A stretch of DNA of 64,000 bases from Octopus vulgaris (Eukaryota). Numbering within the stretch: the first letter of the stretch is position 1; the number at the start of each line of letters is the position of its first letter. The translations under genes and the position numbers were made by a program. The notes under the pieces are model-generated. The model ran no database searches and was not told the DNA's origin. It saw only the letters and a list, made by a program, of their open reading frames with translations. Positions 25,920-64,000 of the stretch are shown one piece after another. The stretch lies in the NCBI GenBank assembly GCA_951406725.2, contig OX597834.1:14446001-14510000 (forward strand), written 5' to 3'.

Positions 25920-26391
25920 TTAATTGTCCCTCTGCTTCTGCTTCTCTCACTTCTCTTTCCACTCCTTAATTCTACTGTCCCCCTGCTTCTACTTCTCTCA
26001 CTTCTCTTTCCCCTCCTTAATTCTACTTTCTCCCTGCTTCTACTTCTCTCACTTCTCTATCCCCTCCTTAATTCTACTGTCCGCCTGCTTCTACTTCTCT
26101 CAATTCTCTTTCCCCTCCTTAATTCCTCCTTCTACTTCTCTTTCCCCTCCTTAATTCTACTGTCCCCCTGCTTCTACTTCTCTCACTTCTCTTTCCCCTC
26201 CTTAATTCTACTGTCCCCCTGCTTCTACTTCTCTCACTTGTCTTTCCCCTCCTTAATTCTACTGTCCCCCTGCTTCTACTTCTCTCACTTCTCTTTCCCC
26301 TCCTTAATTCTACTGTCCCCCTGCTTCTACTTCTCTCACTTCTCTTTCCCCTCCTTAATTCTACTGTCCCCCTGCTTCTACTTCTCTCTCT
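25920..26391. repeat. 51-bp pyrimidine-rich minisatellite, ~9 units
   Basis: Unit ttaattctactgtccccctgcttctacttctctcacttctctttcccctcc starts at 25966, 26017, 26068, 26151, 26202, 26253, 26304, 26355; a 32-bp deleted unit at 26119. Confidence 0.95.
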
Positions 26392-26891
26392 TCCCACGTG
26401 ACCGATCGGCCAAGCCTTCTCTTTCGTTTTGGGTCCGACCATTTTCCGTGCAACATCGATATTCTTCCCTGCGTCTGTGAAACCTTTCTATCTCTACCGT
26501 AAGGCATCGGTTCCGTACGCGCCAGATTAATAAAATTCGTCCATAGTCGAAAGACATCTGTTATTACTTATATCATATATTTTTTATTGTATTTATATTT
26601 GTGTAACATTGTCCGTTTCTTCCGTCCTTATTTTTGTACACATTCGCTGTTTTCTTCCAAGGAATCTAATGCTCTTAGCTTAGTTTTTTCTTGGGGCTGC
26701 CCAGATTGGAGTAATCTCAAGAATAATCGGCCGAAATTGCAAGGATAATCTGGTACTTGAATGAGGAATGAAAACTTGGAATGACCCGTCCTTGTTTTCT
26801 TTGTATCGTCTATCTGGATGTTTCTTTGTCCGTTTTTGTATCACGTAGCTGTGCGGATGTATTGCGTTCTTGTCCCATTTTACATATTATA

Positions 26892-31092: not shown

Positions 31093-31322
31093 TATGTAAC
31101 AATTATCCGGTAGTCATGCTAAAACTCCGAGATTCAGATTTCGGTTGTCGATGGCTCGATAGCTGAAGAGATGCCGGCGTGGGTTGCCGTCCCAACATCC
31201 GAAACTGGGAGTTCCATCATGGCTAACAAATAATTGTCACATAATATATTTACAGATAAATACCTATATTTAAATAATATCGAGGTCTCTTTCATTCTTT
31301 TGTTGTCTTACCATTTTTATCA
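31093..31322 (+). mobile_element. Hammerhead-like unit with an inverted 5' copy (Penelope-like remnant)
   Basis: CTGAAGA 31163-31169, gatg/catc stem, GAAA 31201-31204; 31093-31150 is an imperfect inverted copy of 31193-31243; 31164-31300 is homologous to 60766-60905. Confidence 0.7.
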
Positions 31323-57867: not shown

Positions 57868-58090
57868 GCGTGTGTGTGTTTGTGTGTCTGTGTTTGTCCC
57901 CCTAGCATTGCTTGACAACCGATGCTGGTGTGTTTATGTCCCCGTAACTTAGCGGTTCGGCAAAAGAGACCGATAAAATAAGTACTGGGCTTACAAAAGA
58001 ATAAGTCCCGGGGTCGAGTTGCTCGATTAAAAAGGCGGTCCTCCAGCATGGCCGCAGTCAAATGACTGAAACAAGTAAAAGAGAGAGAGA
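57868..58090 (+). mobile_element. SINE A 3' half
   Basis: Near-identical to the A tail, ending aaggcggtcctccagcatggccgcagtcaaatgactgaaacaagtaaaagag. Confidence 0.9.
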
Positions 58091-58436
58091 GTATGGGTAT
58101 AACAGAATTACACTCTGCAAGAGTTTTTTTTTTCTTTTCTTCTTTTATGGCTTTGGTTAGTAAGTTCCCTATTGGATTCTACCTAGGAATTAAAGGAAAT
58201 GACAATAAATTCCTTTATAACTTTGCTTTTGTGAGCTGGGCATCAATGTTTTCAAACTGACCTATATTATATTACATTTCAGAGACATTTTCCGCTGTGT
58301 TACTGAACCAGTTATATCGTTATATCAAATATTCTGCTCAATATCACAGATGTTGCTGGACCTTCAACGCTTGAGCATATCCCTTAGGGGCTCACAATAT
58401 GTAAATCTCTGATCATAAGCAGGTGTAGTGAGGGAG

Positions 58437-58765
58437 ATGTGAGGGCGCGTGGCTTAGTGGTTAGGGCATTCGGCTCATGATCGTAAGGTTGTGAGTTCGA
58501 TTCCCGGCGACGCGTTGTGTCCTTGAGCAAGACACTTTATTTCATGTTGCTCCAGTCCACTCAGCTGGCAAAAATGAGTTGTACTTGTATTCCATAGGGT
58601 CAGCCTTGTCACTCTCCGTGTCACGCTGATTATCCCCGAGAACTACGTTAAGGGTACACGTGTCTGTGGAATGCTCAGCCATTTGCACGTTAATTTCACG
58701 AGCAAGCTGTTCCGTTGATCGTATCAGCTGGGACCCTCGTCGTCGTAACCGGCGGAGTCTTTAAA
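58437..58765 (+). mobile_element. tRNA-derived SINE family D (CORE/V-like centre) with tail type 1
   Basis: A box TGGCTTAGTGG, B box GAGTTCGATTCC, tgtgtccttgagcaagacactt; 3' half nearly identical to SINE C tail 1; 10-bp TSD agtgagggag at 58427-58436 and 58766-58775. Confidence 0.92.
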
Positions 58766-59967
58766 AGTGAGGGAGCAACATAGCCATGTGTTGAAAGAAA
58801 TTATTTTAGGTTTGACTAAATGTAACAAACAGAAAAGCTGAAGGAATTATTAGCCATTTTTCATACTTCCTAGGGTTAAGCGGATAGGAAATAACGGTTG
58901 TTCCCAAAGGACAAAAATCATGTTACGCTCCATTATGTATTTTTTCCGCGAATGTTCATATTTTTATTAAATAGACACTGTTTGTCTTGTTATAGCGTTT
59001 CTTTCTTCTCTGATACTAAGTGACAGAAACATACTTTGGATAACAATAGGGATTCGAATTTCAGATTAAATAACAATATTTGTATCATTCTACTATTTTT
59101 TTTTTTCCTTAAAGATATGACCTTAGCATGTTTTTAGTCTTTGTTGTAAATCATATTCAGTTCCAAGTTATAAATAATTCAGATATTATATAAAATATTA
59201 TAAATAGAAATGTAGTTTTGCAAATACGCATTCGAATAGAAATTTTTATATTTTTATTTGGTATAAACTTCAGAAATTTTTCTAAGAGTCATTTGTTTAA
59301 TTTAGCATAAATTTAAAATGGCAATGAATACTCTTGCCATTCAATTTAGATTTGTCGATTTCTCTCAAATCTCATTTAGATACTATGGTTTGGTTGGTTG
59401 GGGGTGGTTAATGTTAACAATTCGATTTTTGGAAGTTTTCCCATAATGGAAAATCTTATACGTTGAAAGATTGACAAACATAACAATTTGAAAAAAGTAA
59501 AGTGATTGTTGAAATACAAATTTATTTCGCCGACCATAACTGACAGCAATTTCTTGATTGACAAACAAAGGTCAATATCATGATATAAATTCCCATCAAA
59601 TCTCTTCGCTTTCTTTCCAGCTTTCCTTAGTGTTTAATGTATTTCGTTTCGTTATTCACTGGAGGTTAAACGGAACGACACACTTCTGCAATGTATATAT
59701 ATGCAATGAGTTGCCATAGAATTCCACATATCCGTATATGAGAATACAGATACATGCATGTATATGTATATGCATGTGTGCGTATGCATGTGTGTGTGTG
59801 TGTGTGAGCGTGTGTGTGTGTACGTCTGTGTGTGTGTGTATTCCCCATAGTGGTGTTCCAGTATGACCGGAGCCGCATGTCTAAAACGAATAAAGGAATA
59901 AAATAATATATACATGTATCGCATACACATACATATATATATACATATTTATATATACCCATATGTT

Positions 59968-60040
<73 letters not shown>

Positions 60041-60100
60041 TATATATATATATGTGCATACAACCATAAAAACATATATTCCTACCCATAGTTATGCGTG

Positions 60101-60142
<42 letters not shown>

Positions 60143-60676
60143 CGCATCTGTGTGTGTGTGTGTGCCTATGTCTGTCTGTGTGCTTGTGTGTGTCTGTGTG
60201 CCTCTGTGTGTGTGTGTGTGTGTGTGTGTACTTATTCATACGCACACATTTCATATATAATACACAGGTCATAAACCTGAATAAACTGATAGATATTAAG
60301 ATCATGTTTTATCAGCTAATTAATGATGTAGACGATAACGAAAGAAAACATTACAAAATACAAACAAAAGAAATTCCCTCCGACCATTTCCAAAAGTACA
60401 CATTTCAGTCTTCATTCCAGTTCCTATTTTGTAAGATAACTCTTTACTTCTAAACTGAGTGGTAAATTTAATGTGAATGATTCGTCCGGGCTAAAATCAC
60501 CAACTATCACTTTAGTTGCCTGTATCACCGTCCATATATCTCAAAGCGTTTTGTTAAGGGTATTTCTACAGATAATCTATAGAGATTATAACTAGCACTG
60601 ATTTTTGCTACGTTTCGAATCGAGATGTCAGATGTAAACACACTGTGTGATCGAGGAAAAAAAGTGGGTAACGAGA

Positions 60677-60750
60677 GTTGTTTGTTCCTTCTCGAGCCAC
60701 GCCTGGCTCATAGGGCCGGTTTCCCGGTTTCCTCGGCGTATAGGTTCCCC
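60677..60750 (-). mobile_element. Isolated SINE/LINE tail type 2
   Basis: Minus strand ggggaacctatacgccgaggaaaccgggaaaccggccctatgagccaggcgtggctcgagaaggaacaaacaac matches 4935-4992. Confidence 0.8.
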
Positions 60751-60765
60751 ATATATACATATATA

Positions 60766-60920
60766 TGATGAGATGCCGGAGCAGGCTTCAGCCCCGACAT
60801 CCGAAACTATGAGTTTTATTATGACAACTAAGTGATTGTCCTATATTATATTTATAGATAAGTTCCTCTTTTTATATTATATCGAGGTCTCATTCATTCT
60901 TTTTCTTTGATATTATTATT
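60766..60920 (+). mobile_element. Second copy of the hammerhead-like unit seen at 31163
   Basis: tgatgagatgccgg...ccgacatccgaaactatgagtt...atatcgaggtctcattcattcttt. Confidence 0.75.
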
Positions 60921-60921
60921 A

Positions 60922-60959
<38 letters not shown>

Positions 60960-60961
<2 letters not shown>

Positions 60962-61300
60962 TAGGTGAATGAATGATCCTAAGTGGATAATTCGGTTAAT
61001 CTATACCTGGGTAGCAAATTCACGTCAGAAAACACGGTTGAAGCAACATTCCAAGGGCAAAACCCCGTGTTCCTGTGTGGAAATTTGCGTGTTTTTTTTT
61101 GTCTTGTACCTTGCGGTCACAATGTAGGCAGTCATCAAACAGTTTTTGTTCATCGTGAGACTGATAGAGGCTCATTGTCTTTCCTGAAGAGAAGACGGTA
61201 TAATGCACACTTTATTCCTTCGGAATTAAGAATATGCAGTCTTCGAAACATGTGTCGAAAGTAAAGGAATTTTGTTAAAATCTTCGTTCGACTCCATTCT

Positions 61301-61305
<5 letters not shown>
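60960..61305 (+). mobile_element. ~345-bp non-coding unit in (TA)n carrying a hammerhead ribozyme (putative retrozyme or non-autonomous Penelope-like element)
   Basis: Bounded by (TA)n on both sides, no credible ORF, contains the hammerhead at 61179-61261. Confidence 0.6.
61179..61261 (+). ncRNA. Minimal type-I hammerhead ribozyme, apparently intact
   Basis: Stem I ctttc 61179-61183 / gaaag 61257-61261; core CTGAAGA 61184-61190; stem II gaagac 61191-61196 / gtcttc 61239-61244; GAAA 61245-61248; stem III AC-atgt-GT; GUC cleavage triplet 61254-61256. Confidence 0.8.
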
Positions 61306-61371
<66 letters not shown>

Positions 61372-61474
61372 TATATTGGGAGAGTTTACGAAGAATGGTT
61401 AGTTGAAGGAATCCAACTTTGGTGTTTTCTTTGAGAGCTTAATACTTATACTATAGGCCTCTTATATATGACAG

Positions 61475-61630
61475 GATTCGTTCGGTTTCCGTCTACCAAT
61501 TCCATTCACTAGGTTTTGGCTGACTCGCTACTATAGTAGAAGTCACATGTGCAAGGTGCCACTTCGTGAGACTGAACCCGGGGGACGTGTAGTTGGGGAA
61601 CGAATTTGTTGACCTGCACCCACATCTTCG
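61475..61630 (-). mobile_element. Old SINE A head
   Basis: gtttccgtctaccaattccattcac...ctatagtagaag...gactgaacccgg. Confidence 0.75.
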
Positions 61631-61649
61631 GCTCACACGCACACACACA

Positions 61650-61689
<40 letters not shown>

Positions 61690-64000
61690 GTGGGGGTGGA
61701 ATGGGATTCATAGAGAGTAAAAAATAAAAACATTTATAAAATGATAAATACCGAGAAACCTACACGTTACATTTTGACAATATGTGTATAAAAGATGTTT
61801 ACCGTAGGTGTTTCGTATGGAAGGCCACGAAAATATTGTATAAGAGTGCAAAATGCTAATTACATTTCCTGTAAATTACTTTTTGATTCCGTACACGATC
61901 GACTGTTTTTATTTTTATTTAATTTTTTTTATGATGCTATTTCGTTCACTTTATAATTTCTTTTCATTATTTAAATTAGCATTTATGGATAGAGGTCATT
62001 TGCATTGTTGAACATAAAACTAATCTAATACATAATTCATTTCTGAACTGGTCAGCGTTTGACCTGTTGTATTAAACTGTAACACCATCTGTAGTCGTAC
62101 GAAAAAATGATGTACGCTGTCAACTCCCGAGCAGAAAATCGCGCTTCCTAACGTTAGTTTTTATTTTAACAGTCCTACGACAGTTGCTAATCGATTGTGT
62201 ACCATATGGCTGCTGGTGTAAGAATACAATATATATTATGAATAGCACTAATGAATCGTATGTGATCGGATTTGACAATCTGTTGATATTGCACGCCCAC
62301 CGTTCTCTTGCGCTGGAAGAAATTAAACTGTTGTTAGAAAATTGCTAGGGGCCGCCGGAGAAAGAATAAATTACATAGGGCTCAAGAAAGAGAGACGTTG
62401 AGAGAGCAGGCAACAAGATCGTGCATTTGGGGACGACAGAAACATCTGGCTCAGAGTCACATCATCTGACTCAATAAAGCTCGCAGTGTAACGCCGTGGT
62501 TTTGTCTTGTACCTTGTTAGGTGGCATTGGGTAGCTGTGGTGACGCAGTGGGAGAGATCGAAACACGAACCACCAACAGATTTGCTACACCGTTTCATGA
62601 GGCATTGATTCTGGCATTCGGAGACAGAGTACAACATCACCTCTTCAGTGCGGAAACGTTTGCCCTAAATGTATCTCATTCAGTCAGATTGCAATTATTA
62701 CTTGATAATAATTACTCTGCACTTAATATTCACGATGTACGTTCAGACTATTTCGAATCGATGAGGTTATTAATATTATAGCTGAGTGTCTGTGAAAACA
62801 TTATTTATCCTTGTTCAATATTTAGAAAAAAAGGTAGCATTGATGTGAAACAGTTCTCGATTATCTTTCGGTGATTTTACAGCAACAGCTCAATGCAGCA
62901 AGAAATCGTATCTCGTTGAAGATCAGATCATTTGATTTTATATCATTTTATTTCATTTTATGTTTTCATACGCTATAAACATAATTTGTGCTTCACATGT
63001 ATAACACACAGTACGTTGATGTAAGCTGTTGTTAGCTTATAGCGGTTGTGTCTTCTGATAAGATTGAGTACCTGCGAAGGAACCGCATATTTTGCGATAT
63101 ATCTCCCAGAGTGATTTGTTTGCACACCATATAGATATGTTTGTACCACAATTGTGTTATCTCTCAACAACTTTATGTATGCATATGCTCAGGTGTAGTG
63201 AAGATCTATGTATCTTGTACCGTATTTTCTTTATTTGAATGAATCATATTTGTATAGTTAAGCATGATGTTTAGTTATAGTTAATGTTCTCTGCAGTTAC
63301 TGATAAGAAAGCCAATAAATGGGGCAGGCGCTGCTTTAAGGCTTGCTCAATCTGTAAAATATGGAAACAAACAGTTCTCAAATGTCTCATCAATGTTTAA
63401 AAAAGCGACTAAACATTGCTGATAACGAGCAATTTCTCTTAGAATGTTAGCAAAATGTGTTGCGGGTAAAACACCTTCGCTCGCTTCCCTTATCTGGAGG
63501 AAAATAAACTAAATATTTTCCTTTAGGCAAAATAAAAATTTATCATTTTGCAGCAAACGTCATAACTATAAAAAAACCAAAAGATTTTCATTATCACAAA
63601 CGATATGAGAAATTCGTAAATCCAGTAATACGTGGTAACCGGATTAGATTTTCTTAACTTGATACAGCCAAACATGGATGATCAGTAGATGAAAAGAGAG
63701 CGCATGTAAAGAAACAAGGTTTAAATTGTAACTTGTAAGCAAACTATTTATCAGCAGAGCCCACAAAAAAGTGTGTAGTAAGGCAATTTGTTGATAAAGA
63801 ATGAAAACTGAAGAAAGAGTTTATCAAAAATACTTTACCCAAAGCAGATCTTCAAATGCAGAAGAAACGTTATAAACCAAATCACGAATGGCGAAATTAC
63901 GGCTTCAATAAGCGTAGGTAATCGATTTACCGAACGAGTAATCAAACCATCGAATAATTGATTGTTTCAATGTTAATGAAGAGAGGAATAATCATAAAAG

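Follow-up and report, generated by a model that had tools for sequence, protein, structure and literature searches.

A hammerhead-bearing insertion in Octopus vulgaris, very probably two joined ends of a Hydra-like Penelope-like element

The window, i.e., the whole 64,000-nt stretch of Octopus vulgaris DNA analysed here, carries a short insertion in a (TA)n tract at 60960-61305. This is very probably a head-to-head insertion of a Hydra-like Penelope-like element (PLE), in which a 194-nt pLTR end with a hammerhead meets an inverted 141-nt tail, the cut ends of the (TA)n target having primed reverse transcription at different sites. The evidence lies in the two arms of the insertion, in the layout of full-length parent copies, and in a regularity in how insertions of the family end.

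The insertion and its hammerhead

The left (TA)n target tract (60926..60959) adjoins the B arm (60960..61100, minus strand), which is the inverted non-coding tail, the leader segment between ends A and B of the parent element. End B touches the TA tract at about 60958-60960. The arm is a reversed match to the pLTR-to-ATG stretch of the full-length copies L105, L106, and L107. The A arm (61112..61305, plus strand) consists of the last 194 nt of the pLTR; it is 5′-truncated and stops at end A, against the right (TA)n tract (61306..61376). It matches the 3′ end of L031 and other ORF-bearing copies at 95-97% identity; in these, a frame for reverse transcriptase (RT) and a GIY-YIG endonuclease accompanies that 3′ end. 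Between the arms lies an 11-nt filler (61101..61111), whose first 10 letters have no second occurrence among the loci examined and whose source was not found. A sequence-only reading of the window had placed the insertion in a (TA)n tract and linked its hammerhead to PLE pLTRs. The flanks are indeed present on both sides, and the motif sits in the arm that is the pLTR end. This copy is the short extreme of its family: one side is nothing but tail, the other is 194 nt long, and the filler separates them. Three PLE proteins had no tblastn match in the window. Standing alone and lacking an ORF, this copy is most likely a dead passenger.

The type-I hammerhead motif extends from 61179 to 61261 on the plus strand, with the cut predicted after C17 at 61256. 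Stem I pairs CTTTC (61179-83) with GAAAG (61257-61). The core strand CTGAAGA (CUGAAGA; 61184-90) leads into stem II, GAAGAC (61191-96) with GTCTTC (61239-44), which an extension of GTATA (61198-202) with TATGC (61233-37) lengthens to 61191-202/61233-44. Loop II is about 42 nt long and structured, with an inner hairpin at 61214-26. The core GAAA (61245-48) is followed by stem III, an 8-nt self-complementary palindrome, ACATGTGT (61248-55, plus strand), which among relatives reads ACAUAUGU or ACACGUGU. That is, a CUGANGA/GAAA/UH core and three helixes are found in type-I order. Each hammerhead part named in the sequence-only reading is at its given position, and its stem III is self-complementary as proposed, so that the palindrome can pair between two molecules and would suit cleavage as a dimer; the label "minimal" fits loosely, given the length of loop II and the palindromic stem III.

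The descriptor scan that had been proposed recovered this hammerhead as the sole match on both strands of the window under three settings, all with a loop III of ≤12 nt. As a control, 300 dinucleotide shuffles of the window gave no strict and two loose matches. A setting requiring a longer stem III found nothing in the 64 kb. The proposed Infernal/Rfam check came out negative: no Rfam family reached its gathering score anywhere in the window, and in 58000-64000 hammerhead families were absent even at E≤10, likely because of the long loop II. Judged on sequence, the motif is a real type-I hammerhead, and cleavage is predicted.

A profile search returned 194 near-full hammerhead copies, 122 of them distinct, from 174 loci. 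Of the 122, 21 copies were hand-picked by eye, one per visible sub-lineage, for measuring conservation. Among these representatives, mean conservation is 0.99 for the core, 0.79 for loop II, and 0.83 for the flanks. N7 and H17 are positions free to vary in hammerheads; here their conservation is 0.57 and 0.62, and H17 is never G. Stems I-III covary across the sub-lineages, the figures being inflated by the choice of related, hand-picked copies: stem cells are paired in 93.1% of cases, versus 88.6 ± 0.8 in shuffles (0 of 500 as high), and 8 of 20 pairs are changed on both sides, a number reached by 2 of 500 shuffles of these 21 related representatives. Slid controls pair at 35-54%. The palindrome centre is U-A in 12, U-G in 8, and C-G in 1 of the 21, always pairable between molecules. 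On the homologues that the sequence-only reading had asked about, the outcome is in its favour: in these copies the core is near-invariant and the stems covary. Despite the inflation, the conservation pattern as read from these sequences tracks the anatomy of the ribozyme.

One subfamily, represented by L161, L162, and L163 (G000:C5, C1, and C5), has a U4C change in its hammerhead core, present in each of the seven copies listed. Its members have open 778-aa frames, and the related L174 has a normal core. The U4C change lowers hammerhead activity according to PMC3088659.

Folding calculations give a mixed picture. The fold z-score of a 101-nt stretch, -0.18, marks no unusual stability. In the 83-nt motif as a monomer, pair probabilities are ~0.6 for stem I, ~0.95 for stem II, and ~0.04 for stem III. 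Stem I falls to 0.0 within the 194-nt and 346-nt contexts, which on this modelling would be a point against easy folding of the hammerhead. The active monomer lies at -11.3 kcal/mol versus a minimum of -14.7, and the active dimer, a double hammerhead, at -33.4 kcal/mol versus a dimer minimum of -39.8. The minimum-energy dimer keeps stems I and II of the active form, with stem III shifted.

Other hammerheads and repeats occur nearby. A second hammerhead-bearing repeat is present in two copies that are 77% alike, at 31152-31230 and 60763-60905 (both plus strand), and again in L038, L064, L024, and other loci; its hammerhead is almost intact at 31163, whereas C3 is lost under a TA run at 60765, which is 150 bp to the left of the 60960-61305 insertion. 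These copies are likely fragments of another (TA)n-targeting PLE family. At about 62590-62650 (minus strand) lies a weaker motif resembling a hammerhead, whose stem I is poor. Next to insertions of the studied family in L156 (5699, minus) and L170 (6433 and 6998, minus) there is a hammerhead of a third type, which has CUGACGA and in which the stem III loop is self-complementary. In L036, L043, and L044 (G000:C10, 95.3-95.5 Mb), three near-identical segments of ~9.5 kb, arms of the family adjoin a different PLE, that of protein P0002, which has DKG and a cysteine-rich endonuclease region and is flanked by its own inverted repeat; a Pfam search with this unrelated neighbour gave RVT_1 below threshold. 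The window also holds a 51-bp minisatellite, GC-richer and with higher-order periods (25925-26393), and a tRNA-like match at 58445-58514 (plus strand), possibly the head of a SINE, which scores 25.1 of the 29 bits of the Rfam threshold; ARAGORN called no tRNA in the window, there included.

The parent element and the ends of its insertions

Full-length copies (L105, L106, L107, L155, and L172) share one layout. The order of parts is pLTR with hammerhead, end A, tail, end B, ~53 nt, ATG, ORF, 3′UTR, and pLTR. In L105, end A is 57 nt past the cut, the tail measures 146 nt, and 53 nt separate end B from the ATG; end B thus falls at about cut+203. The cut-to-ATG distance is 255-267 nt in seven of seven aligned copies from several subfamilies, and the tail contains conserved blocks in the aligned parent copies. 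In L172, elements with intact frames are arrayed head to tail at a period of 3625 bp. A sister subfamily has numerous near-identical 899-aa frames, a sequence pattern that suggests recent activity.

The ORF encodes about 780-900 aa. A single ORF with RT and C-terminal GIY-YIG motifs is seen in P0003, P0004, L155, and L162. Its motifs are RW(L), SDKT, and YRDD, then a C-terminal GIY-YIG-type region that lacks CCHH and has CxxC and CxH near its end, around E and N. A CxCX5C linker is missing in P0004, L155, and L162, i.e., in the three subfamilies aligned; outside homologues P0005, P0006, and P0012 have a CNC...CP motif at the linker position. Pfam found no family for the partial protein P0001. 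The protein has 428 homologues, the best named match being from Argonauta hians. Asn-rich stretches lie between the RT thumb and the endonuclease in L031 (4700-5420) and its relatives, resembling those described for Penelope elements of Adineta. Together with pLTRs in partial tandem or inverted form, a hammerhead in the pLTR, and a tail at one end, all features of EN+ PLEs, these sequences identify the parent as an EN+ PLE of the Hydra type, which we file as Hydra-like and not as a Hydra member.

The ends of insertions, tallied by hand reading, follow a rule of one A and one B. Selection by RT-region DNA gave 40 insertions, of which 22 were two-ended, all 22 inverted A+B; 16 were one-ended and 2 had no end. 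Among 20 loci selected by the N-terminal protein, chosen from 151 matches, all 13 two-ended insertions are A+B; the other seven comprise four without an inverted arm, one whose arm ends at the ATG, and two arrays. Hence A+B holds in 35 of 35 cases in which an insertion selected by its ORF has both ends classable. Thirty loci selected by the tail gave 22 A+B, 8 incomplete or atypical, and no B+B. A candidate B+B insertion, L169, was rejected and counted as unclassable, as its arm continues to the ATG. The long arm may be either A or B. The target is (TA)n across copies of the family, and end B backed by TA also appears in contigs from other sequencing runs. Those contigs attest presence and show neither a splice joint nor a pile-up of ends, and none of the runs listed as containing the sequence is recorded as RNA.

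Partner arms come from one subfamily and are not reliably nearer each other than other copies. In a test of 28 pairings, three of them spurious, the partner was closer in 9, another copy was closer in 13, and 6 were ties. B arms often extend past A, which implies that strand displacement or a second RNA is needed. A reading of the similar ends of the window insertion as the TIRs of a MITE was discarded; they are ends A and B, which lie on one strand of the parent.

Formation of the insertions and the role of the ribozyme

We propose that a read-through RNA, running from the pLTR into the next leader, would be bound by the element protein, which may act as a dimer. With both (TA)n strands cut by the GIY-YIG domain, one DNA end would prime at site A and the second at site B, each of them AT-rich. 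Both cDNAs would stop early and then be joined head to head. A precedent is PAc of Anolis as reported in PMC11167929: both target strands are cut and extended in vitro, two internal RT starts bound the tail, a protein dimer is predicted, and the hammerhead is protein-assisted and dispensable in vitro. A more specific version, that one protein dimer primes one target end at A and one at B of a single leader RNA, always one each and with 146 nt between the sites, (TA)n targeting being achieved without the zinc linker, is offered tentatively, as somewhat short of an even chance. If it were true, the choice of target would come from the endonuclease core or else from AT-rich pairing where priming takes place, and thousands of natural copies would record asymmetric two-ended integration.

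The sequence-only reading took 60960-61305 as a non-autonomous unit of the retrozyme kind. On such a view, a retrozyme or SINE-like unit would be transcribed, self-cleaved, circularised, and re-inserted whole. Its size, low GC, and type-I hammerhead do match animal retrozymes as characterised in PMC7229834, 17 copies have the overall layout in common, and a descent of retrozymes from PLE pLTRs has been argued (bioRxiv 10.64898/2026.07.22.740005). These 17 copies, however, were picked by a whole-unit query, and in 17 of 17 aligned the join, read by eye, is different (28 of 30 loci were taken in, two redundant ones being omitted). With joins that differ in all 17, the 345-bp stretch does not spread as a unit. 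Moreover, arm lengths vary freely among the 29 other tail-selected copies, and the halves are separate and oppositely oriented in the parent. A 346-bp query is a high-copy repeat, with 3583 first-look candidates, 40 scored, and 59 matches in the 2.8 Gb genome (227 contigs), and query bases 1-140 and 153-346 are often found apart, on opposite strands. The short head-to-tail array that had been looked for was not seen, and there is one hammerhead per unit here; the tandems found are of whole ORF-bearing elements, with a period of about 3.2-3.7 kb. From these sequences, the variable joins appear to have largely refuted the retrozyme reading already, and we allow it hardly any probability. The inverted arm might instead have arisen by self-priming or fold-back, e.g., on an antisense template as for rotifer Penelope, and not from two target-primed events. 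This model is discussed in PMC3846280; symmetric joins at short palindromes do occur (6, 3, and 6 exact cases), and the shared subfamily of partner arms would fit. It is nonetheless unlikely: in the window insertion, L110, L111, L113, and L161, the arm made of tail only has little or no sequence in common with the A arm, and on the side of the target each arm stops at a fixed site of the element. Neither window arm contains the other; thus, neither is a fold-back copy.

Most arms run across the predicted cut site. Exact symmetric joins were counted at the cut-site TCGA (6), at +36 (3), and at -14 (6); in this rough comparison of patterns unequal in length and degeneracy, the cut shows no excess. 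From this it follows that the template would be mostly uncut; cleaved RNA as template was considered and dropped, the joins giving no genomic sign of it and an apparent cluster of B-arm stops near the core, noticed by eye and post hoc, being given no weight. The same joins, the arms that cross the cut, and the loss of stem I in longer contexts would also fit a hammerhead that has stopped cleaving and persists as a structural or protein-binding part of the pLTR, as would U4C, which is reported to reduce activity, in a subfamily whose frames are long and open. We regard this as improbable. The catalytic positions are fixed in the 21 representatives whereas N7 and H17 vary in the permitted manner, the palindrome covaries, and PLE hammerheads tested so far cleave weakly as dimers or with protein. 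In our favoured reading the ribozyme would likely be a slow dimeric cutter of tandem transcripts: it would cleave solely as a dimer, formed through its palindrome by the pLTRs that such a transcript contains, probably with help from protein, and its role would be the processing of element RNA.

Comparison with known systems

The ribozyme itself is ordinary, being of a known kind and expected in such pLTRs: hammerheads in PLE pLTRs and in Hydra elements are already documented in PMC4209133 and PMC8557442, respectively. Like the PLE hammerheads described by Cervera and de la Pena (2014, PMC4209133), the present one has a short helix I, a long helix II, G10.1-C11.1, and a palindromic helix III with predicted use as a dimer; unlike them, it has no extra nucleotide between 9 and 10.1, and its loop II is much larger and structured. 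Animal non-LTR retrozymes, as outlined by Cervera and de la Pena (2020, PMC7229834) and by Li et al. (2026, bioRxiv), share the type-I hammerhead, the scale of about 300 nt, the low GC, and the kinship to PLEs. Those are head-to-tail tandems of a fixed unit, whereas the octopus insertion is a one-off inverted fragment.

Our literature searches found no report of this O. vulgaris family, Repbase and Dfam, which may hold it, lying outside their scope; nor did they turn up a non-coding tail of ~146 nt, a tally behind an A+B rule, or linker-free targeting of (TA)n. A 2026 paper on O. vulgaris repeats lists Penelope-like families, and its main text, in the form available, uses neither "Hydra" nor "ribozyme". 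The published octopus family Hydra-1_Obim is another family, its N-terminus and hammerhead differing by eye.

The closest relatives by protein are in the Hydra clade (Craig et al. 2021), with whose published alignment the parent proteins agree by eye. As set out in PMC8557442, shared characters are a single ORF, the RW motif, DKT, a C-terminal GIY-YIG domain without CCHH, CxxC and CxH around E and N, a (TA)n target, and a type-I hammerhead near the 3′ end with a palindromic stem III. The octopus elements differ in lacking the CxCX5C linker, with an Asn-rich stretch instead in two of three subfamilies aligned, in a unit of up to 3.6 kb versus usually <3 kb, in RWL versus RWK, and in a loop II of about 42 nt versus 3-9 nt in the listed Hydra hammerheads. 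Loss of the linker with (TA)n targeting retained challenges the proposed link between CxCX5C and (TA)n. The intact 899-aa frames, together with natural hammerhead variants (three palindromes and U4C), provide material on what the ribozyme does for the element.

In insertion structure, the family resembles Poseidon PAc of Anolis (Frangieh et al. 2024) and Pen2a of Adineta (Arkhipova 2013). PMC11167929 and PMC3846280 describe pLTRs, inverted arms, and an AT-rich target, two fixed ends with a tail between them on one arm, and a hammerhead upstream. One-sided tails of 30-40 bp are thus already known from these accounts, and they lie inside the ORF; the octopus tail is about 146 nt, non-coding, and ends about 53 nt before the ATG. 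This length bears on how inverted one-tailed PLE insertions form, as it clearly separates the priming sites and exposes both the one-A-one-B rule and arms that cannot have been copied from each other. PAc showed no difference between strands in the start site, whereas in the octopus family A is strictly paired with B.
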